Source: Rhodospirillaceae bacterium
GTDB lineage: Bacteria; Pseudomonadota; Alphaproteobacteria; Rhodospirillales; Rhodospirillaceae
Reading direction: 5' to 3'
Length of the DNA: 47,188 nt
NCBI GenBank assembly: GCA_002691085.1
Contig: NZGX01000046.1
Location: 2,364 to 49,551 of the forward strand
The translations under genes were made by a program, and so were the position numbers. The notes beneath the pieces were generated by a model. It was given only the letters and a program-made list of their open reading frames with translations. It was not told the origin of the DNA and did not search any database. Shown piece by piece: positions 5,920-47,188 of the stretch (positions are counted from its first letter, which is position 1; every line of letters begins with the position of its first letter).

Positions 5920-8886
5920 TTGGCAAAAGTTGACAAGCTACGATTAGCAGGCTTTAAGTCTTTCACAGATCAAACTGATTTAGATATAGGCCCTGGTGTC
6001 ACTGGAATTGTGGGCCCTAACGGATGTGGTAAGTCCAATCTAGTTGATGCATTCAAATGGGTGATGGGAGAATCATCAGCAAAACAGATGCGCGGCGACG
6101 AAATGGATGAAATAATCTTTGGAGGAACAACTAACCGTCCCGCTCGTAATTTAGCAGAGGTAAGCTTAGTCCTTGATAATAATTCAAGATCAGTAAACGA
6201 CATGTTTAATGATACAAATGAATTAGAAATAACCAGGAGAATTGAGAGGGGAAAAGGGTCTGTTTATAACGTAAATGGAAGAGAGGTAAGAGCTAAAGAC
6301 ATTCAACTTCTTTTTGCCGATCTTGGATCAGGTGCAAAGTCTACAGCTCTTGTAAGTCAAGGTAAGATTGGAAGCTTAATAAATTCTAAACCCACTGAAA
6401 GAAGGCACCTCCTAGAAGAAGCAGCAAACATCACTGGGCTCCATAATCGTCGTCATGAAGCTGAGCTAAAAATTAAAGCAACTGAAGGTAATTTGGAAAG
6501 ACTTAATGATGTGATAGAAGCACTGGAGGGTCAATTAAAGAACCTAAAGAAACAAGCACGGCAAGCAGGCAGATATAAAACTATATCTTCATCTATTCGT
6601 TCAGCACAAGCTTTGGTATTCCTAATTCAACATGCAGGTGAAATAACTAAATTAGTGAATAATACCTCGGAATTGTCACACATAAAAAAAGACTTAGAAA
6701 AAAAAATGCAAGCAGTTTCATCTGCCTCAAACATTCATGTAGATGCTGAAAAAAATCTTTCCCCACTTCGTCAACAAGAAGTAGAAAAGAATGCTAAAGT
6801 ACAAAGATTACAACTTGGCATTAAGCAACTAGATGATGAGGTTAAAAGAATTGAGAATAGTAAGTACCAGTCACTAAAGAGATTAGATGATATCAATGAG
6901 GATATATCTAGAGAGAACAATAACATTAAAGATGCTCAAAATAGTATCCGAAAAATAAACGCTTCTCTTACTGAATTAAAATCTTTAATGGAAAAACAAG
7001 CTGACTCATTATCAGAATCGTCCAGGAATCTAGATTTAATAACGAAGACTGTAACAGAATTAGAAAATGCTCAAACTGTAGCTTTAGATAAAGATAATGA
7101 CCTTAGAGAAAAATTACAAAAAAAGAGAGAATATACAACTAAAATTGAAACTGAAATCTCTACTTTAAAAAATTTGCTTGAAGAAAACCAGGTGATCAAT
7201 GAATGGGAACCTGTTATTGAAAAAATAAATATAGAAACAGGTTACGAGTTAGCGCTAGAAGCTGCATTTAGTGAGGAGTTATATAGTTCAACTGATATTC
7301 AGAATCCAATTCATTGGTCAGATAATCCTGATATTAGAACCTTACAAGAGCTCCCTCATGGTTGTACTCCTCTATCGAGCTTTGTCAGTGTACCGGATAA
7401 ACTCAAGAGAAGACTCTCACAAGTTGGATATATAAATGATGATAATTTAGGGGATACCCTCCAAGCTTCACTTAAACCCGGACAAAGAATAGTTAACAGT
7501 GAAGGTTTCTTATGGAGATGGGATGGATTTACAAAAAAAGTTAGAACTGAGAGTAATGCAACAAAGAATATTAAGTACAAGAACCGTCTAAGCAAACTTT
7601 ATGAAATGCATAATGATAGTAAAAAAAATGAAAAATCCTTTATAGAGCAAAATACACCAAAAGAAGCATATGAGGATATAAGTGAAAAATTAAATAATAA
7701 TAGGAAGATACTAATTGAGGCAAAAACTGCTTTTGAGAATTACCATAATGTTAATGAAGATAGAAAAAGTCGAATTAATTCATTTGAAGAGGATCAAACA
7801 TCTTGGGGTTACAGACTAGAAAGCAGCAATACACAACTAAGACTTCTAGAAAGTAGGAAAGTGTCTGCATTACAAGAAATTGAGGAACTATCAGCTCAAC
7901 CAAAAATTATTGAAAACAAGAGATCCAAATTAATGGATGAATTAAAAGCTTCTGAAGCAGAAAAATCTGATGCAACAGACAATCTTGTTGAAGCAGAAAA
8001 AATTCTTCATGAAGCAACAAAGAATCTAAGAAAAGCCGATCAAGAAGCATCCACTTCAAGAGAGGCTCAAGTTAGGTCTGAAGCAAATATAGATCAAATA
8101 AATCAAAATATTCAAAACTTAGAAAAAACTATTAATGACGTAATTAAATGCACACCTGGAGATTTGAGACAAAATACTCGTCTTAAACAAGATGAAGAAC
8201 TACCTGATCTAGAAAAAGCAGAAAAATCACTACAAAGGCTTAATAACGAGAGAGAAAATATCGGAGCAGTAAATCTCCGAGCTGAACAAGAATACACAGA
8301 ACTAGATCAAGAGATTAGTAATCTTATAAATGAGAGAGAAGACCTCAATAAAGCAATTTTAAAACTTCGAGCTGGAATAACAAAACTAAATAAAGAGGGG
8401 CGGCAAAGACTTCTGCAATCATTCGAGTTAGTAAATAAAAACTTTAAAGAATTGTTTAGGAACTTATTTGGGGGAGGAAAAGCTGAATTATCAATGAGTG
8501 GTGATAGCGATCCACTTGAGGCAGGATTAGAAATTTATGCCAGTCCTCCAGGAAAAAAACTTCAGAACCTAGCTTTACTCTCAGGCGGTGAACAGGCACT
8601 AACAACTGTTGCATTATTATTTGCTGTTTTTAACGTAAACCCAGCACCCTTATGCATTTTGGATGAGGTAGATGCGCCGCTAGATGACACAAATGTGGAT
8701 AGGTTTTGTAATTTAATCTCTCGAATTTCTCAATCAACGGGAACCAAAATAATTATTGTAACTCATCATAGAATGACAATGGCCAGAGTAGATAGGCTTT
8801 TTGGCGTTACTATGGCAGAAAAAGGGGTTTCAAAACTCGTTTCCGTTAACTTAACTGAAGCAGAAAAACTAAGAGATATTGCTTAA
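5920..8886 (+). CDS. smc: Chromosome segregation protein SMC (short form, 988 aa)
   Basis: TTG start. N-terminal LAGFKSF plus Walker A (GPNGCGKSN), long heptad-rich coiled-coil arms, C-terminal signature LSGGEQALT and Walker B (LCILDEVDAPLDD). Confidence 0.9.
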   Translation: MAKVDKLRLAGFKSFTDQTDLDIGPGVTGIVGPNGCGKSNLVDAFKWVMGESSAKQMRGDEMDEIIFGGTTNRPARNLAEVSLVLDNNSRSVNDMFNDTNELEITRRIERGKGSVYNVNGREVRAKDIQLLFADLGSGAKSTALVSQGKIGSLINSKPTERRHLLEEAANITGLHNRRHEAELKIKATEGNLERLNDVIEALEGQLKNLKKQARQAGRYKTISSSIRSAQALVFLIQHAGEITKLVNNTSELSHIKKDLEKKMQAVSSASNIHVDAEKNLSPLRQQEVEKNAKVQRLQLGIKQLDDEVKRIENSKYQSLKRLDDINEDISRENNNIKDAQNSIRKINASLTELKSLMEKQADSLSESSRNLDLITKTVTELENAQTVALDKDNDLREKLQKKREYTTKIETEISTLKNLLEENQVINEWEPVIEKINIETGYELALEAAFSEELYSSTDIQNPIHWSDNPDIRTLQELPHGCTPLSSFVSVPDKLKRRLSQVGYINDDNLGDTLQASLKPGQRIVNSEGFLWRWDGFTKKVRTESNATKNIKYKNRLSKLYEMHNDSKKNEKSFIEQNTPKEAYEDISEKLNNNRKILIEAKTAFENYHNVNEDRKSRINSFEEDQTSWGYRLESSNTQLRLLESRKVSALQEIEELSAQPKIIENKRSKLMDELKASEAEKSDATDNLVEAEKILHEATKNLRKADQEASTSREAQVRSEANIDQINQNIQNLEKTINDVIKCTPGDLRQNTRLKQDEELPDLEKAEKSLQRLNNERENIGAVNLRAEQEYTELDQEISNLINEREDLNKAILKLRAGITKLNKEGRQRLLQSFELVNKNFKELFRNLFGGGKAELSMSGDSDPLEAGLEIYASPPGKKLQNLALLSGGEQALTTVALLFAVFNVNPAPLCILDEVDAPLDDTNVDRFCNLISRISQSTGTKIIIVTHHRMTMARVDRLFGVTMAEKGVSKLVSVNLTEAEKLRDIA

Positions 8887-11363: not shown

Positions 11364-12860
11364 CTACTCTGCAGCCTTTAAAACTGGATTAGGTGTCCAT
11401 CTCAATATTGGCTTTCTAGCCGCAAGTGTCTCATCCAGCCTTAGTCTCGGAGCATTCACAGGTGAATTTTCAAAAAACTCAGGTGTTTCTTTTTTCATTG
11501 CCTTTTTAGCCAATTTTATTACTGCATCAATCAATTCATCAAGTGATTGTCTGCTCTCAGTTTCTGTAGGTTCAAATAATAAAGCACCCTCAACTACAAG
11601 CGGGAAATACATGGTTGGTGGATGAAAACCCGAGTCAATCATTGCTTTCGCAAAATCAATCGTTCTTGTGCCAGTTCCATCAAGAAAACTTCCGTCAAAA
11701 AGTACTTCATGCATGCATGTACCATTATGAAATGGGGTTAGATATTTTGAAAGTCTCACTCGCAAATAATTTGCATTAAGAACAGCATCTCCAGAAACCT
11801 GAGATAAACCATCTGCTCCTAAACTCATGATATAAGATAAGGCCCTAACAAAGACTCCAAACTGTCCATGAAAACCCTTCATCCTCCCTATACTAAATTC
11901 TGATTGATTTGAACCAGAATGCTCAACCATAAATAAATTTTTATTTTTCTTAACTACAAATGGAACCGGCGCAAATGGAGCAAGGGATTCAGATAAAACA
12001 GTTGGCCCTGCTCCAGGACCTCCGCCTCCATGTGGTGTTGAAAAAGTCTTATGCAAGTTAATATGCATTGCATCCACACCAAGTTGCTTAAGGGTTAAGC
12101 GTCCAACAATTGCATTAAAATTTGCACCATCCATGTAAAAATATGCACCAGCGTTATGAACAGCATCTGAAATTCTCAGTGCATCTGTCTCAAAAAGACC
12201 ACAGGTATTTGGGTTTGTTATCATCACTGCGGCAATGTCATCACCCAGTCTATTATTCAATGCATCTAAGTCAACTCTCCCTTTACTATTGCAAGGTATT
12301 GACTCTACAGAATACCCACAAAGAGATGCAGATGCAGGATTTGTTCCGTGAGCAGACTCTGGAACTAGGACGACTTTTCTCTCATTCTCACCATTATGTT
12401 CATGTGCAGCTCTTATACACATTAATCCACACAATTCTCCATGTGCACCTGCTGCAGGAGACATTGCAACAGCTGGTAAACCAGTTAAATCTATCAACCA
12501 ATCAGATAATAAATTTATAGCCTTGTAGGCTCCCTGTATTGTTTTTTCAGGCTGAAAGGGGTGAATGTCCATAAACCCTTTAAGCCTAACCATTTTTTCA
12601 TTCAACCTTGGATTATGCTTCATTGTGCATGAACCTAGAGGATAAAGACCTGTATCTATTGAGTAATTTTGCCTAGATAATCTTGTATAGTGCCTTACCA
12701 CCTCAGGCTCAGATAAACTTGACAAACCTATAGGGTTAGATCTTTTTATACCGCCCAGGTTCTCAGATTCCCCAAGAGGAGAATCAAAATCAACTGCGCT
12801 GTTATCAGAAACAGGGTATTCGAAAATTAAAGGTTCTTCGTGAAGAAAATTGTTTTTCAT
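11364..12860 (-). CDS. gcvPB: Glycine dehydrogenase (decarboxylating) subunit 2
   Basis: 498 aa with the PLP-lysine motif NLHKTFSTPHGGGGPG. Last gene of the gcv operon. Confidence 0.93.
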   Translation of the reverse strand: MKNNFLHEEPLIFEYPVSDNSAVDFDSPLGESENLGGIKRSNPIGLSSLSEPEVVRHYTRLSRQNYSIDTGLYPLGSCTMKHNPRLNEKMVRLKGFMDIHPFQPEKTIQGAYKAINLLSDWLIDLTGLPAVAMSPAAGAHGELCGLMCIRAAHEHNGENERKVVLVPESAHGTNPASASLCGYSVESIPCNSKGRVDLDALNNRLGDDIAAVMITNPNTCGLFETDALRISDAVHNAGAYFYMDGANFNAIVGRLTLKQLGVDAMHINLHKTFSTPHGGGGPGAGPTVLSESLAPFAPVPFVVKKNKNLFMVEHSGSNQSEFSIGRMKGFHGQFGVFVRALSYIMSLGADGLSQVSGDAVLNANYLRVRLSKYLTPFHNGTCMHEVLFDGSFLDGTGTRTIDFAKAMIDSGFHPPTMYFPLVVEGALLFEPTETESRQSLDELIDAVIKLAKKAMKKETPEFFENSPVNAPRLRLDETLAARKPILRWTPNPVLKAAE

Positions 12861-12862
12861 AT

Positions 12863-14197
12863 CTATAGTACCTTATTTAGTGCATCAATAAATGAATCTA
12901 GGTGACTTTTGGTATTCATCTCAGTTGCAGTAACTAACATTAAATTACTTAAATGAGGATGCTCTGGATAAAACCTTGAGACAGGTATACCAGCTAAAAT
13001 GTTTAAATCCGTAAGTTCATCAATTACACTCCCTGCTGACCTTGGTAACTCGACGACAAATTCATTAAAGAAACTAGAATTTATAACTTTTATTTTAGGA
13101 ATATTGTTCAACCTTATTGATAGTTCTACAGCATTTTTATGATTTATATTGGCTAGTTCTAGGAAACCACTTTCTCCTAAAAGTGTAAGATGAACACTAA
13201 AAGCTAGAGCAATAAGACCCGAGTTTGTACAAATGTTAGATGTGGCTTTTTCTCTTCGGATATGCTGTTCCCTGGTAGACATGGTTAAAACAAATCCCCT
13301 CTTTCCATCTTTATCAAGTGTTTGACCACAAAGTCTTCCTGGCATTTGACGTACATATTTTTGTAATGATGCAAAAAAACCTAGGCCTGGACCTCCAAAA
13401 TTTGATGGCCCCGCAAGCGATTGTCCCTCACCCACAACTATATCTGCTCCCATTTCACCCGGTGACTTAATCAGTCCAAGAGAGACAGGTTCTGTGACAA
13501 CAACGATAAGAAGTACACCCTTATAACGACATTCATTTGCTATAGACGTGTAGTCTTGAATATTACCAAAAAAACTAGGATTCTGAATTACTAAGCATGA
13601 TAGGTTAGTATCTATTTGATTTAAAAGGTCCTCTTTACCAGATACGTAAGGATCTAGAACTTTAAAATCAAAACCTAAGTGTTTTAATTGTGTTTTAGAG
13701 ACATCAATATAATGAGGATGAAGACCACCAGATATTAAGACTTTTGATCTCTTATTTATCCTTGACGCCATAGAAATTGCTTCTGCACAGGCAGTAGCAC
13801 CATCATACATTGAAGCATTAGCAATTTCCATCCCAGTAATTAAAGCAACTTGAGTTTGAAATTCAAATATAACCTGCAAGGTACCTTGGCTTATTTCTGG
13901 TTGGTATGGAGTATATGAAGTTAAAAACTCCCCCCTTTGAATAATGTAGTCAAGCGATGCAGGTGAATAATGACAATAGTTTCCTGCACCCAAAAAAGAT
14001 GGTACCTGAGTATACGGTAAGTTTTCATTTGCAATTTGAGATAATTCTCTATCTACCTGAAGTTCACTTTTGTGTTTAGGAAGGTTTTGTGGTACCTCCG
14101 ACTTAGGGAGTTCATCAAATAAATTATCAATAGATTCTATTCCAATTGTATTAAGCATTGATTCTCTATCTTTATTACTTAGGGGTAAATATCTCAT
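12863..14197 (-). CDS. gcvPA: Glycine dehydrogenase (decarboxylating) subunit 1
   Basis: The track ORF starts at a TTG (14203). I prefer the ATG at 14197, which gives the canonical MRYLPLS N-terminus and has AAAGG 8 nt upstream. Contains a TPYQPEISQG motif. Confidence 0.92.
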   Translation of the reverse strand: MRYLPLSNKDRESMLNTIGIESIDNLFDELPKSEVPQNLPKHKSELQVDRELSQIANENLPYTQVPSFLGAGNYCHYSPASLDYIIQRGEFLTSYTPYQPEISQGTLQVIFEFQTQVALITGMEIANASMYDGATACAEAISMASRINKRSKVLISGGLHPHYIDVSKTQLKHLGFDFKVLDPYVSGKEDLLNQIDTNLSCLVIQNPSFFGNIQDYTSIANECRYKGVLLIVVVTEPVSLGLIKSPGEMGADIVVGEGQSLAGPSNFGGPGLGFFASLQKYVRQMPGRLCGQTLDKDGKRGFVLTMSTREQHIRREKATSNICTNSGLIALAFSVHLTLLGESGFLELANINHKNAVELSIRLNNIPKIKVINSSFFNEFVVELPRSAGSVIDELTDLNILAGIPVSRFYPEHPHLSNLMLVTATEMNTKSHLDSFIDALNKVL

Positions 14198-14210
14198 CCA
14201 CAATACCTTT

Positions 14211-14591
14211 CTATTCTGTAATTTTTTTTATATATTCTTCGTACTCACTGTGACTCAGTAAAGAATTTAATTCCTGTGACTCAATCTCAGAAATTTTAAA
14301 TAGCCAACCATCACCTTCAGGATTTAAATTTACTAAATCAGGACTACCCTCAACCGCATCATTACAAGTGATTACTTTTCCAGAAATTGGAGCATAAATT
14401 TCACTTGCAGCTTTTACTGATTCAATTACAGAAATTTCATCTCCTTGAGAATACACACTACCTAGACTAGGAAACTCAATAAAAACGATATCACCCAACT
14501 GCTTTTGTGCAAAATCTGTTATACCCACTGTTGCTGTGTCATCCCTAACGGTAACCCACTCATGTTCTTTCGTGTAAAAATATCCTTCCAT
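14211..14591 (-). CDS. gcvH: Glycine cleavage system protein H
   Basis: 126 aa with the lipoyl-lysine motif ESVKAASE and the N-terminal YTKEHEW motif. Confidence 0.93.
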   Translation of the reverse strand: MEGYFYTKEHEWVTVRDDTATVGITDFAQKQLGDIVFIEFPSLGSVYSQGDEISVIESVKAASEIYAPISGKVITCNDAVEGSPDLVNLNPEGDGWLFKISEIESQELNSLLSHSEYEEYIKKITE

Positions 14592-14594
14592 ATA

Positions 14595-15752
14595 TTAACC
14601 TCCCCTATAGTATTTATTAGAGACAAATGGAAGTTGAACAACCTCAGCTTCAACATTTTTGTCTCTTATCTCAACAAATAGCTTTGAATTTGGATTTGAA
14701 AATTCATTTGCAATTAATGCAACTGCAATCGAACAACCAATTGAAGGACTATAAGCGCCAGAAGTTATTTTCCCAATTTCCAAACCATCTAATGATTTCA
14801 CTGCCATCCCTGGACGTGCAATTGATTTTCCAAGCAACCTTAATCCAGTTCTGAATTTAGATGGCTTAGTTTTTAACTCATTTATAATTCGTGAACTGCC
14901 AAGAAAATTACCTTCTTTGATCCTTTTTTTACTCAAAGACCAAGATAAGTTTGCTTCTACAGGTGATGTATCATCATTTATATCATTACCATATAAACAT
15001 AGACCTGCTTCAAGCCTTAATGTATCACGCGCACCTAGCCCAATAGGCAAAGTTTCTTTATATTCTAATATTTTCTCAGCTAATTGCTTAACGTAATTAT
15101 TTTCTATGGAAATCTCAAAACCATCCTCACCTGTATAACCACATCTTGAAATAATAATCTCCTTATCATCTAAAGTATCTTTTTGACATTTCATAAAGGC
15201 CATTTTGGTAACTTGTGGGATTATTCTTTTCAAAACATTGGAAGATTCAGGGCCTTGGAGTGAAATAAGTGAAAGGTCGGGTCTCTCTCTTAATGTAGTG
15301 CCAGGGTTGAGGTGAGACCTTATAAATTGATAATCTTTATCCTTACAAGATGCGTTTACTATAATTCTATATAAAGGCTGGCCATTGGTAATCTTTAAAA
15401 GAGAAATCATAAGATCATCAACGATGCCTCCATTATCATTCAGGATTTGGGAATATCTTATTTGACCTATATTTAGACTTCTAAGATCAATTGGAATAAT
15501 TCTCTCTAATGCAGAAATTATATCACCCCCGTAGAGGTCTGCTTGACCCATGTGAGATACATCAAAAAGCCCACAAGAACTTCGGGTGTGAAAATGTTCA
15601 CTTATAATAGAAGTTTCATACTTCAAAGGCATTGAGTAGTTTGCAAAGGGAACAAGTTGAGCCATTAAACTTTTGTGTAAAGGCAACAATGATGTAGCTT
15701 TTAGTTTATATGACTCTCGAGGGTCTCCCAAGTGAAACTCCATTTTAGACAA
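14595..15752 (-). CDS. gcvT: Glycine cleavage system aminomethyltransferase T
   Basis: 385 aa. GLFDVSHMGQ motif and C-terminal barrel. The start is ambiguous between TTG at 15752 and ATG at 15743. Confidence 0.9.
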   Translation of the reverse strand: MSKMEFHLGDPRESYKLKATSLLPLHKSLMAQLVPFANYSMPLKYETSIISEHFHTRSSCGLFDVSHMGQADLYGGDIISALERIIPIDLRSLNIGQIRYSQILNDNGGIVDDLMISLLKITNGQPLYRIIVNASCKDKDYQFIRSHLNPGTTLRERPDLSLISLQGPESSNVLKRIIPQVTKMAFMKCQKDTLDDKEIIISRCGYTGEDGFEISIENNYVKQLAEKILEYKETLPIGLGARDTLRLEAGLCLYGNDINDDTSPVEANLSWSLSKKRIKEGNFLGSSRIINELKTKPSKFRTGLRLLGKSIARPGMAVKSLDGLEIGKITSGAYSPSIGCSIAVALIANEFSNPNSKLFVEIRDKNVEAEVVQLPFVSNKYYRGG

Positions 15753-15771: not shown

Positions 15772-15982
15772 GAATGCTATTCCTTACAGACGCCCTCCTC
15801 TGTCTAAAACCTGAGAGTTTGACCGGTGATATCTTACCAGCTTTCCCCTTCGGTGAAATACCCGTTTATAATGGGTAATTACTTTCCAGAGTCCCTTACC
15901 TTAGCGGTCCTGGTGCCTGAGAGATTCCGAGGGTAGTTGCTCCTTCGGCGTCTTATTTTAACTTAAAGACTCTTCCACTAAA
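15772..15982 (-). promoter_or_regulatory. Tandem glycine riboswitch (two aptamers plus expression platform) in the gcvT leader
   Basis: On the minus strand, aptamer 1 reads GGAAGAGTC...ACGCCGAAGGAGCAACTACCC...CTCTCAGGCACCAGGACCGC. Aptamer 2 reads CTCTGGAAAG...TCACCGAAGGGGAAAGC...ACTCTCAGGTTTTAGACAGAGGAG. These match the conserved glycine-aptamer cores. A hairpin AAGGAAT-AGC-ATTCCTT follows. Confidence 0.85.
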
Positions 15983-16042
15983 GACTAACGGATATAAATT
16001 CAATAAACCAGTTCATATAAAAAGGTCAATAAATAAATTTAT

Positions 16043-39933: not shown

Positions 39934-41055
39934 ATGGAAACACACCTCATGAAAAAAAAATCTATTATTATTATATCTGCATCAATAATTATAAATGCTA
40001 TTGTATTTTCTAACTCAAATGCTCAGTTTTTTGGTGCACCTGAAAAGCATTTTGATGAATACGAAAAACCACCCAAGCCTGATTATAGCAAAGAGTCAAG
40101 TTGGGCGGCTCTTCCAGATCGACAAGATGCTGCTGATGTGTTCCCTGAAAACTCTTTATATAAAGAAAATCAACCTTCTGCAAAAGTTGATGTATTTTAT
40201 ATTCACCCTACAACCTACCGAAATGCAAAAAATTGGAACCAAGATATTAACCTAGAAGAGGTTAATACCTGGACTGATTTAAGCCGTGTTTCTCGTCAAG
40301 GCAGTATTTTTAATGCATGCTGTAAAGTATTTGCACCAAGATACAGACAGGCCGCATTCGGAGCAACATCATCAAAGGAAAGTGGAAAGCTTGCATATGA
40401 CTTCGCCTACCAAGACGTACTAAGTGCATGGAAATATTACATTAATAACTTCAACCATAACCGTCCATTTATAATTGTTGGCCACAGTCAGGGGGCACTT
40501 CATGCCTTCAACTTAATTAAGGAAGAAATTGATAAGTCAAAATATTTTAAAAATATGGTTGCTGCATACATTATTGGTATACCTGTGTTAAAAGGACAGA
40601 TTGAGTTATCAATGAAGAATACTTCAATATGTAAAAAAATATCTGACATAAACTGTATAGTCTCTTGGAATACTTTCACCATGGGTTCTGATGCTTCAAT
40701 TTATAAGAAAATGGCAGTATCTCGTCTCGGTGAAGGACTTGAAGCAAAAGCAGACAAGGGCCTAGTATGCTGGAATCCAACGTCAAATTATATTGATTTA
40801 AACAAAATAAAACCAAACATATCCAATTTGGGGCCTATACCAACAGTTAAAAAAGGTGGAGAACTTCCTGATTTAGCTGAAAAAATCAAAGCTAAATGTG
40901 ATGATGGTATTTTATTTGCCTCTCCACCAAATTCTAAAGAATTTGATTTATTTACCCTTCCAGGAGGAAGTCTTCATATGCACGATATGGAGCTTTTCTA
41001 TGAAAATATAAGAATAAACTCTATTCTGAGATCAAAATACTACACTGTAAATTAA
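39934..41055 (+). CDS. Exported DUF3089-like alpha/beta hydrolase
   Basis: 373 aa with a signal peptide, VDVFYIHPTTY, and a nucleophile elbow (GHSQGA). Confidence 0.6.
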   Translation: METHLMKKKSIIIISASIIINAIVFSNSNAQFFGAPEKHFDEYEKPPKPDYSKESSWAALPDRQDAADVFPENSLYKENQPSAKVDVFYIHPTTYRNAKNWNQDINLEEVNTWTDLSRVSRQGSIFNACCKVFAPRYRQAAFGATSSKESGKLAYDFAYQDVLSAWKYYINNFNHNRPFIIVGHSQGALHAFNLIKEEIDKSKYFKNMVAAYIIGIPVLKGQIELSMKNTSICKKISDINCIVSWNTFTMGSDASIYKKMAVSRLGEGLEAKADKGLVCWNPTSNYIDLNKIKPNISNLGPIPTVKKGGELPDLAEKIKAKCDDGILFASPPNSKEFDLFTLPGGSLHMHDMELFYENIRINSILRSKYYTVN

Positions 41056-41198
41056 ATTATTTACTTACAAAGGGTTAGAGAGTGCCAAAAATAATTATTT
41101 ATTAAGAATTATATTGAGAAAGCTTCCTCTTTAGTGAATTTTAATGTAAAAAATCTATATAAATAAAGAAATAAGACAAAAAGTTTAGTTAACTTATT

Positions 41199-41246
41199 CC
41201 GTCCTCAGGGGTAGATAGAATTATCAAGGACGGTCTTGTTTTGAGG
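41199..41246 (+). promoter_or_regulatory. GC-rich hairpin plus T-tract and possible anti-SD pairing in the leader of the redox operon
   Basis: CCGTCCT (41199-41205) pairs with AGGACGG (41227-41233) across a 21-nt loop and is followed by TCTTGTTTT. CCTCA (41203-41207) is complementary to TGAGG (41242-41246), which lies within the GAGGGG RBS upstream of the ATG at 41252. Confidence 0.25.
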
Positions 41247-41251
41247 GGAAA

Positions 41252-43687
41252 ATGATGGCAGAAATTTTTAAAGTTGCCATTGTAGGATCAGGACCGGCTG
41301 GATCAAGTGCCGCAGCTAGGGCAGCCAAGCTAGGCATGAGCCATATATTGATTGAGAGACAAGATCATATATCTGATACAATTTTTAAGTATCAGAAAGG
41401 TAAATTTGTCATGGCAACTCCTGATTTTTTGCCTCTTCGCTCTGATTTAAATTTTCAAGCCGGTAAAAGAGAAGAAATATTAGACGTTTGGGATAACGGG
41501 CTAGAGGATTGTAAGGTAAACGTAAAATTTGACACCGAAGTAACAAGTATAAAAAAAGAAAAAAATTTTACTATAACCTATGCAGATGGAAAAACTTGTG
41601 AAGCGGAAAACGTAATTCTATCAATCGGCCTTCAGGGAAATATAAATAAATTACCATGTGAAGGGGCTGAACTTCCCTTAGTACAATATCAACTGGACGA
41701 CCCAGAAGAATATGAAGCTGAAACTATTGTTATTATAGGTGCAGGAGATGCAGCAATTGAGAACGCTGTTGCTTTATCAAAACAAAATACTGTTATTATA
41801 GTCAACAGAAGAGCTGAATTTGCTAGAGCAAAACAAGGCAACCTATCTTTGATAAGTGAGGCAATCGAAAAAGGTAATGTCGAAGCCTACTATGAAGCCT
41901 CCCCAGTTAAAGTTGAAAAAGATTCGATTACCTTAAAAACAGCTGATGGTGAAGCACGTGTACCATGTAATCGGATTATTGCAAGATTAGGAGCATCTGC
42001 CCCAAGACGTTTTGTTGAATCATGTGGGGTTGATTTTCCAGATAAAGAAGAATTAAAAAAAGACCCAAAAAAAAGACCTGACCCTAGAGTACTTCCTGAA
42101 GTTAGTGCTCAATACGAGTCAAATGTACCCGGTCTTTTTATTATTGGGGCCCTTGGTGGATACCCACTAATTAAACAAGCAATGAACCAGGGTTATGAGG
42201 TTGTTGAATATATTGGGGGAAACAAAATTCCTCCGGCGGATGAACCTCTTCTTGTTGAAAAATTCTCTGTCTTAAATAATCAAAATGTAGATGATGTATT
42301 AGAAACAATAAGAAAAAATATTCCTATCTTTGAAAAACTCAATACACTTCTTTTAAGAGAAGCAATACTAGAATCAAATGTTCACGCTTTTAAAAAAGAC
42401 GATACCATTTTTAAGCGTAATGATTACTCCAATACCTTTTATACAATATATGTTGGAGAGGTTGGTATTCTCGTTGATCCAAATGACCCTTCACAAGTCG
42501 TAACACTTAATCAAGGAAACTTTTTTGGCGAAATGGGACTTATCTCAGGCAGAAGACGTGCTGCAACTGTAAAAGCAATATCTGATTGCATAGTTTTTGA
42601 GACCCCAAGAAGGACAATGCTAAAGCTAATTCAATCAGTTGAAAGCGTAAAAGATAATTTAGATAAAGTCTCAATGCTTCGCCAAATTCAAACACACCTC
42701 ACCCCAGGTGTTGATGCTAGTGATTTACAAGAATTAATTGAGACAGCAGAAATAGAAAATTTTTCTGCAGGAGATGTCATTTTTAACCAAGGCGATGAAG
42801 GTGATCATATGCACCTTATCCGATCAGGATCATGTACAGTTTCTGTCAAAGTCGGAGGTAAAGACATTGTACTCAGTTATGTCCCTTCAGGTAATTATAT
42901 TGGAGAAATGGCTTTACTGTCCGACCAACCAAGATCAGCAACTGTCAAAGCTGCTCATAATACCCAAACTATAAGATTAACCGGAAAAGCCTTCAAAGAT
43001 GTTTTGAAAAAAAATAGTAGTATAAAAAATAGTGTTGAAAAGAAGTTTAAAGAAAGAATTAATCAAAATGAAAAAATGGAGGGACAACCCGAGGCAGGAA
43101 ATATTATTCAATTCCTAATAGAGCAAGGCGTTGGTGAAGGAACAGATGTTTTACTGATTGATGAAACTTTATGTATTCATTGTGATAATTGTGAAAAAGC
43201 CTGTGCAGAAACACATGGTGGTTTATCTAGATTAAATAGAGAGGCTGGTCCTTCTTATGCCTCTATACATGTACCGACTTCATGCAGACATTGCGAGCAT
43301 CCTCATTGTATGGCTGACTGTCCTCCCGATGCCATACATAGAGCACCAGATGGAGAGGTCTTCATAGATGATAGTTGTATTGGATGTGGGAATTGTGAAA
43401 GGAATTGTCCATATGGGGTAATTCAATTGGCCGCCCCCCCACCAGAAAGATTTAATTTATTCTCATGGCTGTTGTTTAATAAAGGGCCGCCCCCAGGGGA
43501 TTTAAGAAAATCAACAGATTATAAAAACAAAAAAAAGAAAGATGAAAATCAAATTAAACAAGCCGTTAAGTGTGATATGTGTAAAGATATTGAAGGAGGA
43601 GCATCCTGTGTTAGGGCTTGCCCAACTGGAGCTGCTGCCCGAGTAAGCCCTGAGGAATTCATGTCCATAACAAGCCTTACAAGCTAG
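41252..43687 (+). CDS. Fusion protein: FAD/NAD(P)H pyridine-nucleotide oxidoreductase + 2 cyclic-nucleotide-binding domains + four-cluster [4Fe-4S] ferredoxin module (DmsB/NrfC-like)
   Basis: 811 aa. Contains FAD-binding GSGPAGSSAA and NAD(P)-binding IGAGDAAIENA with VNRR, but no TrxR-type CxxC. The two cNMP phosphate-binding cassettes are FFGEMGLISGRRRAATVKA and YIGEMALLSDQPRSATVKA. The four Cys groups are CIHCDNCEKAC, CRHCEHPHCMADCP, CIGCGNCERNCP and CDMCKD-x6-CVRACP. Confidence 0.85.
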   Translation: MMAEIFKVAIVGSGPAGSSAAARAAKLGMSHILIERQDHISDTIFKYQKGKFVMATPDFLPLRSDLNFQAGKREEILDVWDNGLEDCKVNVKFDTEVTSIKKEKNFTITYADGKTCEAENVILSIGLQGNINKLPCEGAELPLVQYQLDDPEEYEAETIVIIGAGDAAIENAVALSKQNTVIIVNRRAEFARAKQGNLSLISEAIEKGNVEAYYEASPVKVEKDSITLKTADGEARVPCNRIIARLGASAPRRFVESCGVDFPDKEELKKDPKKRPDPRVLPEVSAQYESNVPGLFIIGALGGYPLIKQAMNQGYEVVEYIGGNKIPPADEPLLVEKFSVLNNQNVDDVLETIRKNIPIFEKLNTLLLREAILESNVHAFKKDDTIFKRNDYSNTFYTIYVGEVGILVDPNDPSQVVTLNQGNFFGEMGLISGRRRAATVKAISDCIVFETPRRTMLKLIQSVESVKDNLDKVSMLRQIQTHLTPGVDASDLQELIETAEIENFSAGDVIFNQGDEGDHMHLIRSGSCTVSVKVGGKDIVLSYVPSGNYIGEMALLSDQPRSATVKAAHNTQTIRLTGKAFKDVLKKNSSIKNSVEKKFKERINQNEKMEGQPEAGNIIQFLIEQGVGEGTDVLLIDETLCIHCDNCEKACAETHGGLSRLNREAGPSYASIHVPTSCRHCEHPHCMADCPPDAIHRAPDGEVFIDDSCIGCGNCERNCPYGVIQLAAPPPERFNLFSWLLFNKGPPPGDLRKSTDYKNKKKKDENQIKQAVKCDMCKDIEGGASCVRACPTGAAARVSPEEFMSITSLTS

Positions 43688-43696
43688 GAATAAACA

Positions 43697-44518
43697 GTGC
43701 ATGAATCCCTCCTAATTTATAAAAAATTTAAATACCTTAAATTGACTCTCACCACTGTCATTTTATGTATCGTTTTATATTTGTATCACTCGCCTATTGG
43801 AAGCCCTAATGGGGGAACATGGTTAGGGTATACACTTGGCACACTCGCTGCTTTGATAATGTTTTGGCTAGCATGGTTTGGTGCAAGAAAAAGATCCTAC
43901 AATAAATCAAAAGGGAATCTTGAGGAGTGGGCCTCTGCTCATGTGTATCTGGGTTTAGCTCTAGTAGTAATATCTACTTTACATAGTGGTTTTCAGTTTG
44001 GATTAAATATCCACACGATTTTATATTTCTTAATGATGATAGTAATAATTAGTGGGATTATAGGAGTTTATTTCTATCTAAAATTTCCAAGCCTTATAAC
44101 AAAAAATAGAAATGGTCTGACGACAGAAATGATGTTAACTCAAATTACTGAGATAGATGAAGATATAAGAGAGCTATCAATGTCTCTCGATGATTTTACT
44201 GTTGATTTAATGACAAAAGCAATTGAGGAAACAGTTATTGGAAAAAGTTTTATTATTAAACTTAAAGGAGTTGACCCAGATTGCCATACCTCCTTAGCAA
44301 GAAAACATCTAAGAGAGAAAAAATTTTCTGGAAACAATAAGATTAGAGAGCAGCTTTTATCCAAACTAACTAGAAAAGAGAAAATCTTAGATCAACTGAG
44401 AAATGATCTTAAAATGAGATCTCTTTTACAAATCTGGCTATACATACATGTGCCTTTCACATTTGCTGCACTGGCAGCATTGATAATACATATTTTTTCT
44501 GTTTTTTATTATTGGTAG
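43697..44518 (+). CDS. 5-TM membrane protein with two H-x13-H pairs (putative di-heme b-type transmembrane electron carrier)
   Basis: 273 aa. GTG start with AGGA 6 nt upstream. H82/H96 lie in predicted TM3 (HVYLGLALVVISTLH) and H251/H265 in TM5 (HVPFTFAALAALIIH). A hydrophilic insert of about 110 aa separates TM4 and TM5. Confidence 0.6.
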   Translation: MHESLLIYKKFKYLKLTLTTVILCIVLYLYHSPIGSPNGGTWLGYTLGTLAALIMFWLAWFGARKRSYNKSKGNLEEWASAHVYLGLALVVISTLHSGFQFGLNIHTILYFLMMIVIISGIIGVYFYLKFPSLITKNRNGLTTEMMLTQITEIDEDIRELSMSLDDFTVDLMTKAIEETVIGKSFIIKLKGVDPDCHTSLARKHLREKKFSGNNKIREQLLSKLTRKEKILDQLRNDLKMRSLLQIWLYIHVPFTFAALAALIIHIFSVFYYW

Positions 44519-44524
44519 AATAAA

Positions 44525-46285
44525 TTGAAAATACTTTTTTCACATATCACTAGAAAAAAACGCGGGGGTATTGCAACACGCAATGAGTATGCTGAAGCCG
44601 ATACAATCACGATTGGTAGAAGTACAAGTTGCGAATTAAGTCTTTTAGATCCAAGAGTTCATCTAGAACATGCAAAAGTTGTAAAAAAACTAGATACTTA
44701 TGAAGTGATTGCAGCAGAATATACGCTCATAGAGGTTAATGGGGAACTTGTTGATAAAATAACTTTAAAAACTGGAGATACTTTCCTAGTTGGTCCATAC
44801 AAAATTATTTTTGAAAGTCCTTCTAGTGACGCAGATCTTAAATTATCAATTGAACTTACTAAAAATCTAAGAAACCAGGTCAGTGATCTAATCTCTAGAT
44901 CTAATATTGACTCATCAAACTTTGGTATATCTAAAAGAACATGGTCATGGTCACTTTTCTCAATAATTACTGCACTGTTTCTTATGATTCCTCTCTTAGT
45001 AATAAATTCTTCAAAAGAGAATTTAAGTAGTCTTGACCCAGAGGATCTTAATAAAAGCTCAACAAGCCTAGTTAGCGTTTGGAGTACAGGTGAAATATCA
45101 TCTCCACATAATTTTTTTGCACATGATTGTGAAGTATGTCATGAGAAACCTTTTGTTCCAGTACAAAATAATTCTTGTGCTAAATGCCATGATGATATCC
45201 AACATCATGCAGATACAAAACTTTTCCCAAGTGCGAGTCTGAGTGACTTAAGCTGTCAATCTTGTCATAAAGAACACCAAGGTAAAATAACCGTTGTAAA
45301 GAATAACCAAGATTTTTGTGCAAGTTGCCATGACGCAATCCAAGACGAACCAAATTCTCTACTTCGTAATGTTTCAGATTTTGGGAAAAATCATCCGCAA
45401 TTTAATCCTACTGTAATAATTGATAAAGATAAAAATACAAATAGAAGCCTTTCAATTGGGGGAGATCCCAAACCCATTGAATTCTCCGGGTTGCTTTTTA
45501 ATCACGCCGTTCACCTCAGAGAAACTGGTGTAAGGCATCCTAATGATGGAATAATTGACCTAGAGTGTAAAGATTGTCATGTTTCTGATAGCGGTGGAGT
45601 TTCAATGTTACCAATTTCATTTAAAGAACATTGTAACAGTTGTCACAAACTTTATTTCGACTCATCCCTTCCTGAAAGAGAATTATACCACGGAGATACA
45701 AAAGAACTCTTTATTCAAGTTGAGAATGTTTATAACTCTATTGCATTTCAAGGGGGTTATATAGGGAAAGATGCGCCGAATGTAATCAGGCGACGCGCAG
45801 GCCAGACTCTTAGCCAAACTGAGCGTGTTGAAGCAGCAGAATGGGCAAAAAGAAAAAAAGAACAAGTTCTTGATGGTCGTTTTGGAAAGGATAGGTGTGC
45901 TGAATGTCATCTCATTAAAAACAATGAGGAAAGATGGACAATACAATCAGTAAATATCACAGATAGCTGGTTTCCTAAAGCAAATTTCACCCATGAGAGT
46001 CATGAAGATATGGAATGTATTAGTTGCCATGAAGCAAACAGGTCAGAGCAAGCCACAGATGTAATTCAACCTTCTATAGAAATTTGTCAAAGCTGTCATG
46101 GTGGTGAAAATGCTAGGTCTAAAATTCCATCAACATGTGTGACATGTCATGGTTTTCACTTTGAACATATGTCACCAATCTATCCAATTAATGAGGTCAA
46201 AGTTAAAGAAACGACAATACTCTCAAGCCTTTCAGAGAAGAATCTAGCTTTATTTAACAAAAGAGAAAATAATGAAATACCATAA
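44525..46285 (+). CDS. FHA-domain / single-TM / decaheme c-type cytochrome (cytochrome c3/c7-like)
   Basis: 586 aa with a TTG start. FHA pattern: ITIGRS...HLEHAKV...VNGELV...GDTFLVGPYKIIF. TM helix WSLFSIITALFLMIPLLVI at about aa 141-160. Ten CxxCH motifs between 45128 and 46150: CEVCH, CAKCH, CQSCH, CASCH, CKDCH, CNSCH, CAECH, CISCH, CQSCH, CVTCH. Confidence 0.85.
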   Translation: MKILFSHITRKKRGGIATRNEYAEADTITIGRSTSCELSLLDPRVHLEHAKVVKKLDTYEVIAAEYTLIEVNGELVDKITLKTGDTFLVGPYKIIFESPSSDADLKLSIELTKNLRNQVSDLISRSNIDSSNFGISKRTWSWSLFSIITALFLMIPLLVINSSKENLSSLDPEDLNKSSTSLVSVWSTGEISSPHNFFAHDCEVCHEKPFVPVQNNSCAKCHDDIQHHADTKLFPSASLSDLSCQSCHKEHQGKITVVKNNQDFCASCHDAIQDEPNSLLRNVSDFGKNHPQFNPTVIIDKDKNTNRSLSIGGDPKPIEFSGLLFNHAVHLRETGVRHPNDGIIDLECKDCHVSDSGGVSMLPISFKEHCNSCHKLYFDSSLPERELYHGDTKELFIQVENVYNSIAFQGGYIGKDAPNVIRRRAGQTLSQTERVEAAEWAKRKKEQVLDGRFGKDRCAECHLIKNNEERWTIQSVNITDSWFPKANFTHESHEDMECISCHEANRSEQATDVIQPSIEICQSCHGGENARSKIPSTCVTCHGFHFEHMSPIYPINEVKVKETTILSSLSEKNLALFNKRENNEIP

Positions 46286-46697
46286 GTTTTTTTTAATGAG
46301 TCTTATAATAATTTTAACCTTCACTAAAACTGTAATTAGTGAGACAGTAATATTAGAAAGTGAAGCAAAGTTTTTAGGAAAATTAAGCTCTAAAGACCTT
46401 GAGAGTCAATTTTCAATTAATGTAAAACTCAATGGGGATATTCCACTTGCAACATATGTATCAGCGCGTTTTCAAAATAATCAGCCAAAACAAAGATTAG
46501 CCAATAGTTTATGGATAGATTGGAATGAGAGAGTCGAAACTTTACAGAATAACGGTTTTGCGCCAACTGAAAATGACATGCTAATATTCGATATTTTTGA
46601 GGAGAAGCTTGATTATACTTTCCTACCAATAATTATAACTATCTCATACTTAGGCCATGATAGTTTAAAATCAGGATATTATATAATAGACCAATGA
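46272..46697 (+). CDS. Small exported hypothetical protein
   Basis: 141 aa with a signal peptide (FFLMSLIIILTFTKTVISE). Its start overlaps the cytochrome gene by 14 nt and its stop overlaps the next start (ATGA). Confidence 0.5.
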   Translation: MKYHKFFLMSLIIILTFTKTVISETVILESEAKFLGKLSSKDLESQFSINVKLNGDIPLATYVSARFQNNQPKQRLANSLWIDWNERVETLQNNGFAPTENDMLIFDIFEEKLDYTFLPIIITISYLGHDSLKSGYYIIDQ

Positions 46698-47188
46698 AAA
46701 TACTTTTTTATATTGCCTTTATTTTCTTTACTGTTTTTTATTCAGAAAAAGCTCTTTCTGAATTCCTAAGCATTTCTGATGTTAATCGTATTGTTGGGCA
46801 AGCAAAAGGTGAGGCATCTGCATTAGGTATTAATAATGCTGTAATTGCAATCTCAGACAGAGTTGGCAATATTCTTGCAGTCTATGCAATGAATCCTGAT
46901 GATATACCCAATATTACAATTACTTCAGGAAGAGGTATAGCAATAGGCAATGGACTGGAGAGCCTCTCATTACCAATCACTCCATTGGCCGCAATTTCAA
47001 AAGCAATTACGGGCGCCTATCTCTCTTCTTCAGGTAATGCATTCACTACAAGAACAGCCAGTCAAATTGTTCAAGAATTTTTTAATCCTGGGGAAAAAGG
47101 ACAGCCGGCTGGGCCCCTATTTGGTGTGCAGTTTAGTCAGTTAGCCTGCTCAGATCTAATGAGGTTTGGAGAAAACATTGGCATTGGT
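46694..47188 (+). CDS. Exported GlcG/HbpS-like (DUF336) domain protein, 3' partial (runs off the window)
   Basis: I translated 165 open codons by hand from the ATG at 46694 to the window end. Not in the ORF track because it is open-ended. Has a signal-like N-terminus. LSISDVNRIVGQAKGEASALGINNAVIAISDRVGNILAVY and AISKAITGAY resemble the GlcG/HbpS heme-binding fold family (from memory). Confidence 0.45.
   Translation, partial: MKILFYIAFIFFTVFYSEKALSEFLSISDVNRIVGQAKGEASALGINNAVIAISDRVGNILAVYAMNPDDIPNITITSGRGIAIGNGLESLSLPITPLAAISKAITGAYLSSSGNAFTTRTASQIVQEFFNPGEKGQPAGPLFGVQFSQLACSDLMRFGENIGIG

Follow-up and report, generated by a model that had tools for sequence, protein, structure and literature searches.

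What does a bacterial protein do in which two cyclic-nucleotide (cNMP)-binding domains stand between a flavoprotein and an iron–sulfur (FeS) module? Such a protein, here called g1, is encoded as a single open reading frame (ORF) of 811 amino acids (aa) in the DNA analysed here, a stretch of 47,188 nucleotides (nt) from a Rhodospirillaceae bacterium (assembly GCA_002691085.1, contig NZGX01000046.1, positions 2,364 to 49,551), referred to below as the window; the coordinates of its features are collected in Table 1. The original prediction, made from the letters of this DNA, had recognized the three modules and had proposed that the cNMP domains gate electron flow. We consider, with a confidence slightly better than even, that g1 serves, on the cytoplasmic side, as the electron-input subunit of a transmembrane conduit made of three proteins, g1–g2–g3, in which it would act as a cNMP-regulated NAD(P)H dehydrogenase feeding a haem wire. 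The observations that carry this proposal are the architecture of g1, the conservation of its cofactor and ligand motifs, its cytoplasmic location, its operon linkage and natural fusions.

An assembly join or a frameshift could have united two or three genes into one ORF, and shorter forms do exist elsewhere (CNB–CNB–FeS alone and flavoprotein–CNB–CNB alone, CNB standing for a cNMP-binding domain). We rejected this explanation and leave it a negligible probability, because full-length relatives of g1 occur in at least 577 GTDB species (pattern scan, one genome per GTDB species). Independent homologues that span the full length of 790–820 aa, more than 120 in number and with 59–96% identity and 99–100% coverage, were found in NCBI, JGI, ENA and Logan, complete genomes included, and one of them, also of 811 aa and 96% identical, comes from other samples. 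The carriers among the matches listed are Alphaproteobacteria (Rhodospirillaceae-labelled metagenome-assembled genomes [MAGs], SAR116, Oceanibacterium, Nisaea, Zavarzinia), Gammaproteobacteria (Lysobacterales, e.g. Rudaea, Tahibacter, Arenimonas and Dokdonella) and also Betaproteobacteria; Sphingobium chromids carry a g1 copy at 46% identity. Each of the three modules is backed by domain profiles, namely Pyr_redox_3 (E 8e-28) and Pyr_redox_2 (E 4e-23) over aa 6–314, cNMP_binding in two stretches (E 2e-39) and Fer4_11 (39.0 bits against a cutoff of 26.2) together with several further Fer4 families, and the architecture is further supported by NCBIfam, PDB sequence matches and Foldseek. Every motif listed in the original prediction was recovered by regular expression. 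Neither of the outcomes named as refuting that prediction, a lack of profile support or an ORF merged from separate genes, was thus encountered. In an alignment of 44 full-length homologues, which serves for all residue conservation in g1 given below, no variation is seen in any of the 16 Cys, in the glycine motifs for FAD and NAD(P)H or in the core of either phosphate-binding cassette; judged from the sequences, this motif set is far above chance expectation. The protein has no signal peptide and is predicted to be cytoplasmic. Its AlphaFold2 (AF2) model has a mean predicted local distance difference test (pLDDT) of 73.5; the flavoprotein and the cNMP domains are modelled well, the FeS tail poorly. 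The true start of g1 may be the second ATG, at 41255, one codon downstream of the ATG at 41252, because the ribosome-binding site (RBS) GAGGGG lies only 3 nt before the first ATG and 6 nt before the second; directly 5' of this RBS is a hairpin with a 7-bp stem, a 21-nt loop and a T-rich tail.

The N-terminal module had been described as a thioredoxin reductase (TrxR) fold devoid of the redox-active disulfide, and this is confirmed by Pfam, by Foldseek and by a regular-expression search that finds no CxxC in g1 upstream of residue 641. The best Foldseek match in the PDB is Bdr/YpdA (7a7b_A, TM 0.79), to which aa 9–264 also align in a PDB sequence search, followed by CxxC-less TrxR-type ferredoxin/flavodoxin-NADP+ reductases (FNRs) of Bacillus, Chlorobaculum and Rhodopseudomonas and then by true TrxRs. 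These top matches (B. subtilis YumC 3lzw, C. tepidum 3ab1, B. cereus FNR1/2 and Bdr/YpdA 7a7b; E about 1e-20 to 1e-24) resemble g1 in the two-domain TrxR fold, in the binding of FAD and NADPH and in the lack of a CxxC disulfide, although identity is just 17–22% and only in g1 is the FeS acceptor in cis, with two cNMP domains between. TrxR-type FNRs exchange electrons between NADPH and FeS (or flavin) proteins, and g1 has the TrxR fold, the FAD and NAD(P)H sites and the absence of a disulfide that define them; by analogy, the best functional analogue of the module is an NADPH:FeS-protein reductase with its FeS acceptor fused in cis. Residues G12, G14, G17, G163, G165, D166, N185, R186, E189, F190, R192 and K194 are invariant. 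The RR pair from which NADPH had been proposed is part of N185–R186–R187, 17 residues past GxGxxA; R187 is kept in only 30 of the 44 homologues while R186 and R192 are invariant, and given these two a preference for NADPH is plausible. Thiol-based identities were rejected: g1 scores 53 bits against a cutoff of 343 for thioredoxin-disulfide reductase (TrxB, TIGR01292), which the lack of an upstream CxxC also speaks against, and 115 bits against 340 for the YpdA/Bdr bacillithiol-disulfide reductase (TIGR04018). The conserved Cys of Bdr, in GxGPCG, is not present in g1, where its position is A16 (A in 24, G in 19 and S in one of the 44), so that Bdr/YpdA-like thiol chemistry is rejected as well. 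Two other Cys of the module are near-invariant despite the lack of CxxC, C239 (41966–41968; 43/44) and C258 (42023–42025; 41/44), and the best-conserved stretch in the g1 family is the peptide DTI(F/Y)KYQ..K.VM.TPD at aa 42–58 (41375–41425), a low-confidence part of the model.

The region of aa ~350–600 aligns as one tandem to PKA regulatory subunits (PKA-R) and PKG in a PDB sequence search. The likeness lies in two consecutive CNB domains forming a single stretch (e.g. 3of1_A, 4mx3_A) with both cassettes canonical; g1 differs in having no kinase-inhibitor or docking segment, and in that a redox enzyme would be the output, in place of a kinase, channel or transcription factor. In known cNMP receptors the Gly–Glu and the Arg of the cassette bind the ribose and the phosphate. 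Both g1 sites are predicted to be ligand-competent by the marks of PF00027, a cassette Gly–Glu and an Arg–x–Ala. In cassette 1, F425, G426, E427, R436, A438 and T439 are invariant; in cassette 2, which the regular expression matched as YIGEMALLSDQPRSAT (aa 549–564), G551, E552, P560 and T564 are invariant and R561 is kept in 43 of 44. It had been claimed that the Ala of RRRAAT in site 1 stands in place of a needed Ser/Thr, so that the two sites would not be equivalent. This is wrong: in 5j3u, a PKA regulatory subunit of Toxoplasma with cAMP bound, the segment aligned to g1 site 1 reads PRAAT, and position 437 is variable (T in 34, S in 5, A in 4 and N in one of 44) while the Arg and Gly–Glu are invariant in both sites, R561 apart. 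Ala437 is, by its conservation pattern, a PKA-like variant of a variable position. A CRP/FNR-like transcription factor was rejected, as no C-terminal helix–turn–helix follows the cNMP domains: no Pfam family of this kind matches g1, and only ~30 residues separate CNB2 from the first Cys motif of the FeS module. The absence of a DNA-binding output, anticipated in the original prediction, is thus borne out.

The C-terminal module had been assigned to the DmsB/NrfC type, which holds at the level of the HycB/DmsB/NrfC superfamily. It has the four Cys groups and the above-threshold Pfam match (Fer4_11) expected of this superfamily, and its best solved match, HycB (7z0s_B), covers all four motifs over aa 634–799 (E 5e-18). 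HycB, HydN, FdnH, DmsB and NrfC show the same spacing of the four Cys groups, but g1 falls far under all equivalog cutoffs in NCBIfam (DmsB 51.9 against 214, NrfC 38 against 378, HydN 45.8 against 260, ArrB 48.5 against 450, TtrB likewise), and none of these identities was retained. Modules of the HycB/DmsB type dock on membrane subunits, and g2 weakly resembles PF01292 (FdnI/HyaC family). Unlike these subunits, the g1 module is cytoplasmic and fused to its own electron donor, and the predicted polarity of g1–g2–g3 is the inverse of that of Fdh-N, the FeS module facing the cytoplasm and the haem c acceptor the periplasm. Between FeS motifs 3 and 4 lies a conserved insert, hydrophobic and Pro/Gly-rich (FNLFSWLLF..GPPPG, aa 733–749, 43448–43498), in which W739, G745, P748 and G749 are invariant; it is a candidate docking element for the membrane or for g2.

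The gene directly downstream encodes g2, and the proposal that it is the membrane partner of the FeS module is supported by its position directly 3' of g1 in 61 of 76 loci and by a natural g1–g2 fusion. The original prediction had missed that g2 is not a DmsC/NrfD-type subunit. Its AF2 model (pLDDT 84.5) has five transmembrane (TM) helices and a helical insert of ~100 aa. Four histidines, forming the pairs H82-x13-H96 on TM3 and H251-x13-H265 on TM5, are invariant in 61 close homologues and also in homologues at 24–39% identity; H31 and H106 are not kept in distant homologues, although H106 is invariant in close ones. Because of the two invariant H-x13-H pairs, g2 is probably a distant di-haem cytochrome b. 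TM3 and TM5 would be parallel by the positive-inside rule, in which case H82/H251 would hold a haem on the cytoplasmic side and H96/H265 one on the periplasmic side, making a classic two-haem transmembrane wire. Assignment of g2 to a known haem b fold failed, with nothing from Foldseek, noise from profiles and matches to PF01292 (FdnI/HyaC cytochrome b; prokaryotic cytochrome b561/Ni_hydr_CYTB) that are always sub-threshold; such matches occur in 38 of 42 g2 members. The UniRef name of the Oceanibacterium g2 is 'Ferric reductase like transmembrane component'.

The third protein, g3, joins a cytoplasmic FHA domain to a periplasmic decahaem cytochrome c, and ten CXXCH are found in 56 of 57 homologues. 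The FHA domain keeps its Gly–Arg and Asn–Gly, while the Ser of S-x-x-H is replaced by His, and by Ala in 32 of 56 homologues; this domain may serve to dock g1 rather than to read phosphothreonine. The window encodes both partners expected of the operon, a 5-TM protein with four His and a decahaem cytochrome anchored together with an FHA domain, and g1 is the first gene of a conserved operon, with spacings of 9, 6, −14 and −4 nt from g1 through g5. Among 81 related loci, each count being made over loci with sufficient flank, g2 lies directly 3' of g1 as stated above, g3 follows in 56 of 69 and g5 in 31 of 46; in some Betaproteobacteria, g3 and g5–g7 are upstream of g1. The g1–g2–g3 triad is kept at 42–46% identity. 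It is found alone (L090, L091), followed by a c554-like tetrahaem cytochrome of ~440–465 aa (L020, L025, L092; a c554-like gene adjoins the triad in L048 and L011 also), or followed by a cytochrome c peroxidase (CCP_MauG, positions 6060–7636 of locus L085) and a cupredoxin. These exchangeable periplasmic clients suggest that the triad is a generic electron-supply module. The c554-like tetrahaem cytochrome is also the sole family that recurs immediately upstream of g1 (13 of 72 loci). Physical coupling is supported by natural fusions: in one locus (L095, MAG GCA_039908105.1) g1 and g2 form a single ORF of 1110 aa, followed by g3, and in two independent assemblies (L096 and L097, P0137) two canonical FHA domains (GR...SRLHA) stand at the N-terminus of the g1 homologue, which is followed by g2, g3, g5 and g6.

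Table 1. Features of the g1 locus in the window (nt, positions in the window; RBS, ribosome-binding site)
Feature	Residues (aa)	Position (nt)	Strand	Basis
g1 (flavoprotein / 2x cNMP-binding / 4x[4Fe-4S] fusion; probable PtdE-type protein)		41252..43687	+	ORF, domains, homologues
5' leader: hairpin CCGTCCT/AGGACGG 41199-41233, then RBS GAGGGG 41243-41248		41199..41248	+	sequence inspection
TrxR-fold FAD/NAD(P)H module, no CxxC	1-335	41252..42256	+	Pyr_redox_2/3, Foldseek, conservation
FAD motif GSGPAG	12-17	41285-41302	+	regular expression
NAD(P)H motif GAGDAA	163-168	41738-41755	+	regular expression
NRRAEFARAK		41804-41833	+	conservation
cNMP-binding domain 1	~350-470	42299..42661	+	Pfam cNMP_binding; tandem alignment to PKA-R/PKG
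Phosphate-binding cassette 1 FGEMGLISGRRRAAT	425-439	42524-42568	+	regular expression
cNMP-binding domain 2	~485-600	42704..43051	+	Pfam cNMP_binding, best stretch 502-588
Phosphate-binding cassette 2 IGEMALLSDQPRSAT		42899-42943	+	regular expression
Four-cluster ferredoxin module, 16 Cys	632-805	43145..43666	+	motifs, Fer4_11, HycB alignment
FeS motif 1 CIHCDNCEKAC	641-651		+	regular expression
FeS motif 2 CRHCEHPHCMADC(P)	678-690, 691 with P		+	regular expression
FeS motif 3 CIGCGNCERNC(P)	709-719, 720 with P		+	regular expression
FeS motif 4 CDMCKDIEGGASCVRAC(P)	774-790, 791 with P		+	regular expression
g2, 273-aa 5-TM protein, ~100-aa cytoplasmic helical insert, putative di-haem b		43697..44518	+	conservation, AF2, synteny
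g3, 586 aa		44525..46285	+	Pfam FHA, Cytochrome_C7, Cytochrom_c3_2
g3 cytoplasmic FHA domain	~25-97	44597-44815	+	Pfam FHA
g3 TM helix (single)	~140-162	44942-45010	+	
g3 periplasmic decahaem cytochrome c, 10 CXXCH	202-542	within g3	+	
g4, 141-aa secreted protein		46272..46697	+	no family match; overlaps g3 stop by 14 nt
g5, 5' part only, runs past window end; secreted GlcG/HbpS-like		46694..47188	+	translation; tblastn to Oceanibacterium and Nisaea g5

The distribution of domains among relatives indicates which part of g1 is constant. The full architecture is found in 40 of 150 representatives at the 50% level; the flavoprotein is missing from 21, which are CNB–CNB–FeS proteins, and the FeS tail from 7, which are flavoprotein–CNB–CNB proteins, and some of these shorter classes will be fragments. 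The short forms keep the four Cys motifs, and encoded next to them are small cytochromes c and g2-like proteins that have the four His. A profile made from the short forms detected three versions: Nitrospinae and Ca. Anammoxibacter have one of ~460–516 aa, Planctomycetota and Acidobacteriota one of ~716–775 aa with additional 2Fe–2S and NuoG-like FeS domains, and Proteobacteria the flavoprotein version of ~800 aa. On these predicted architectures, CNB–CNB–4x[4Fe–4S] plus g2 is therefore the invariant core of the family, to which an exchangeable electron-input module is joined; the flavoprotein is, by the same comparison, a proteobacterial, lineage-specific addition. The idea that cNMP sensors were placed between a pre-existing dehydrogenase and its wire is not borne out, as the CNB tandem is part of the core and the flavoprotein is the addition.

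Although the observation behind the original prediction stands, it had missed that the family is already catalogued and appears in two preprints. The tripartite g1 architecture is annotated generically in RefSeq and IMG (NCBI 'cyclic nucleotide-binding domain-containing protein'), and no report on the biochemistry, structure or genetics of the g1 family was found in the literature searched; the family is catalogued yet functionally uncharacterized, and its discovery at the sequence level is not new. A 2024 preprint described a ptdABCDEFG cluster in Alphaproteobacteria of marine oxygen-deficient zones and in other phyla, the function of which its authors call 'completely unknown' (bioRxiv 10.1101/2023.11.21.568154). 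Compared by description only, PtdE, PtdF and PtdG match g1, g2 and g3 one for one, and the phyla of its Table S7 carry members of the same CNB–CNB–FeS family. That preprint makes no mention of a flavoprotein domain or of four clusters, and has a separate FAD/NAD(P) oxidoreductase, PtdC. PtdA–D (pentahaem, porin, tetrahaem) are not in the window, where the partners are g4–g7. The accessions in the g1-homologue cluster come from the same Saanich Inlet MAG series, yet none coincides with a published PtdE (e.g. MBT5131324, QTD51415), and the neighbourhoods of these MAGs contain g1–g7, not ptdA–D. On the strength of matching descriptions, g1 is a probable PtdE-type protein, and the insert between FeS motifs 3 and 4 may account for the PSORTb 'cytoplasmic membrane' call on PtdE. 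The 'NHC' cluster of Ferrigenium straubiae, called novel and of unknown function (section 6.3.2 of bioRxiv 10.64898/2026.01.22.701106), likewise combines a cytosolic [4Fe–4S] protein, an unannotated 5-TM protein and a multihaem cytochrome c that is anchored in the membrane and has its FHA domain in the cytosol. It differs in having nine haems rather than the ten of g3 and in that no flavoprotein or cNMP domains are mentioned. Its authors propose that electrons run inward, Fe(II) oxidases passing them to quinone, and recognized no redox motif in their TM protein, unlike g2 with its four invariant His in two H-x13-H pairs.

The observations on g1, g2 and g3 can be joined in a model of which we infer the cofactor content, the haems of g2, the outward direction of flow and the regulation by cNMP. 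NAD(P)H would reduce FAD in the CxxC-less TrxR-type module of g1; the four [4Fe–4S] clusters of the HycB/FdnH-like C-terminal module would then carry the electrons from FAD to g2, whose two bis-His haems b would take them across the membrane to the ten periplasmic c-haems of g3. Lineage-specific periplasmic or outer partners would receive them next, which in the organism of the window would be g4–g7 (including a GlcG/HbpS-like secreted protein, a 10-haem LVIVD protein and one of ~600 aa). Electron input would be controlled by cAMP or cGMP bound at the PKA-R-like CNB tandem, so that this NAD(P)H-draining short-circuit would run only on signal. An unregulated path would drain NAD(P)H and dissipate membrane potential, which would provide a rationale for tight second-messenger control. 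Both the redox potentials and the membrane potential speak for outward electron flow, as does the cytochrome c peroxidase next to one triad (L085), a sink partner. Several points weigh against this proposal. The direction of flow rests on the redox and membrane potentials, and for the related module of Ferrigenium inward flow toward quinone is favoured (bioRxiv 10.64898/2026.01.22.701106). No relative of g2 was found in the PDB, either by fold (best Foldseek E 0.44) or by profile (coiled-coil noise), and g2 scores 25.1 bits against PF01292, under the Pfam cutoff of 30.1. In the AF2 model of g1, pLDDT is below 50 across much of aa 676–782, and neither the geometry from FAD to the clusters nor the placement of the cNMP domains can be judged. 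No conserved cyclase, phosphodiesterase or kinase was found among the ORFs immediately upstream of g1 in 72 loci. Finally, one locus (L084) encodes a full-length g1 relative, at 35% identity, without g2 and g3.

Other readings of the complex have to be weighed against this one. The steady sub-threshold matches of g2 to PF01292, whose characterized members have quinone sites (FdnI/HyaC type), the invariance of a fifth His, H106, in close g2 homologues, and the CymA/NrfH-like anchoring of the cytochrome pointed out in the Ferrigenium paper could mean that g1–g2 is a new NAD(P)H:quinone oxidoreductase in which g2 reduces quinone, g3 being a separate NapC/CymA-like quinol dehydrogenase encoded alongside. 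We regard this as rather unlikely, as distant g2 homologues lose H106 and keep the four haem-ligand His, no quinone-site motif was identified, and one lineage has FHA fused directly to g1, which speaks for all three proteins forming one assembly. It is unlikely, too, that the complex operates in reverse, periplasmic or extracellular donors feeding the multihaem cytochromes and then g2, and g1 reducing NAD(P)+ for biosynthesis. The structural relatives of the flavoprotein do include reversible ferredoxin-NADP+ reductases, and the authors who found the related FeS/5-TM/FHA-multihaem module in the Fe(II) oxidizer Ferrigenium propose inward flow, but such flow would be uphill against the membrane potential and, for most donors, against the redox potential, with no energy-coupling subunit present; moreover, the carriers of the flavoprotein form are mostly organoheterotrophic Proteobacteria (Sphingobium, Lysobacterales), and the triad of one relative is paired with a cytochrome c peroxidase, an electron sink.

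A third reading takes g1 mainly for a sensor, a cNMP receptor whose FeS and flavin centres report the redox state, or the reverse, which would modulate g2, g3 or other targets without bulk electron flux. In its favour, cNMP domains in tandem and a partner with FHA are parts typical of signalling, and the cNMP tandem, not the flavoprotein, belongs to the invariant core of the family. Yet the four-cluster wire, the NAD(P)H site and the FAD site are all invariant, and the partners, a di-haem membrane protein and a decahaem cytochrome, amount to far more redox hardware than a sensor needs, so that we find this reading quite improbable. Within the electron-input model that we prefer, cyclic-nucleotide gating of electron flow is plausible from the predicted domains. 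The further claim that g1–g2–g3 is the first electron-transfer complex gated directly by a cyclic nucleotide, cAMP or cGMP on the CNB tandem switching on or off a NOX-like, NAD(P)H-driven export of electrons through a new di-haem b fold (g2) to periplasmic, possibly extracellular multihaem cytochromes, is put forward tentatively, as a possibility to which we give less than even weight.

The genes downstream of the triad are less uniform. g4 is found only in alphaproteobacterial versions of the locus. The part of the cluster from g5 to g7 was read from relatives (loci L048, L011 and L087), in which g5 has ~600–660 aa, with three HbpS-like domains in L048 and L011, g6 is a secreted protein of ~600 aa with no annotation, possibly a porin, and g7 has ~1275 aa, 10 CXXCH and LVIVD repeats; among solved structures, g5 has weak GlcG-like matches and g6 and g7 have none. 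In Sphingobium herbicidovorans (pMSHV, NZ_CP020539.1, locus L086), two metallophosphoesterase genes flank the triad and an EAL-domain gene is nearby. The cAMP phosphodiesterase CpdA is a member of the metallophosphoesterase superfamily, and for this reason the two enzymes might be linked to the cNMP signal. In the window, a DUF3089 protein with a signal peptide (39934–41055, plus strand, Pfam E 7e-59) is encoded directly upstream of g1, which it adjoins in no other locus. A scan of 40900–47188 for promoters and terminators gave no enrichment compared with shuffled sequence. Positions 1–41000 are ordinary low-GC (32–38%) housekeeping DNA, with, by the appearance of the ORFs, SMC, ATP synthase F0 subunits, the glycine cleavage system, ispH and RNase H; this part contains no further multihaem cytochrome (no other ORF with more than one CXXCH) and no cyclase. 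A tandem glycine riboswitch at 15798–15987 on the minus strand, made of two RF00504 aptamers (63.7 and 36.7 bits), lies upstream of the glycine-cleavage genes (11364–15752), an ordinary arrangement.

The logic proposed for g1–g2–g3 has precedents. In bacterial NOX (PMC5676040, PMC11031084) and in MsrQ/Fre (PMC12525009), electrons pass from NAD(P)H to flavin and through two haems b to the periplasm or the outside. The likeness would be in two bis-His haems b stacked across the membrane with an acceptor outside, whereas the parts are non-homologous, the dehydrogenase of g1 being TrxR-like with an FeS wire rather than FNR-like and the acceptor in g1–g2–g3 being a decahaem cytochrome; accordingly, Foldseek gave no match of g2 to NOX, STEAP or MsrQ. 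In the Tmc/Hmc-type complexes of sulfate reducers, an FeS protein in the cytoplasm is combined with a cytochrome b in the membrane and a multihaem cytochrome c in the periplasm, and their cytoplasmic subunit is of the HdrD/DsrK type, without flavin, NAD(P)H site or cNMP domains. g3 has a weak NCBIfam match to TmcA. We would regard FdnH/FdnI and Tmc/Hmc as analogues with related parts.

What is newly proposed here for a module that both preprints flag as expressed and of unknown function (bioRxiv 10.1101/2023.11.21.568154; 10.64898/2026.01.22.701106) is the NAD(P)H input, the presence of four clusters instead of two, the two haems b in the unannotated membrane subunit, the docking role of FHA and the interchangeable input modules. 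The module is widespread, in at least 577 species of marine and soil Proteobacteria, and the CNB–FeS core extends to Nitrospinae, Planctomycetota, Acidobacteriota and anammox bacteria; the model is testable in cultured, genetically accessible carriers, among them Sphingobium herbicidovorans, Nisaea acidiphila, Oceanibacterium hippocampi, Zavarzinia sp. and Tahibacter soli. Bacterial cyclic nucleotides act mainly via transcription factors, plus a few enzymes and channels, and to our knowledge cNMP-gated transmembrane electron transfer has been demonstrated nowhere. Direct allosteric control of a transmembrane electron wire, if true, would be a new regulatory principle for respiration-like processes, and would mean second-messenger-controlled extracellular electron transfer, periplasmic detoxification or extracellular superoxide production in many soil and marine Proteobacteria.

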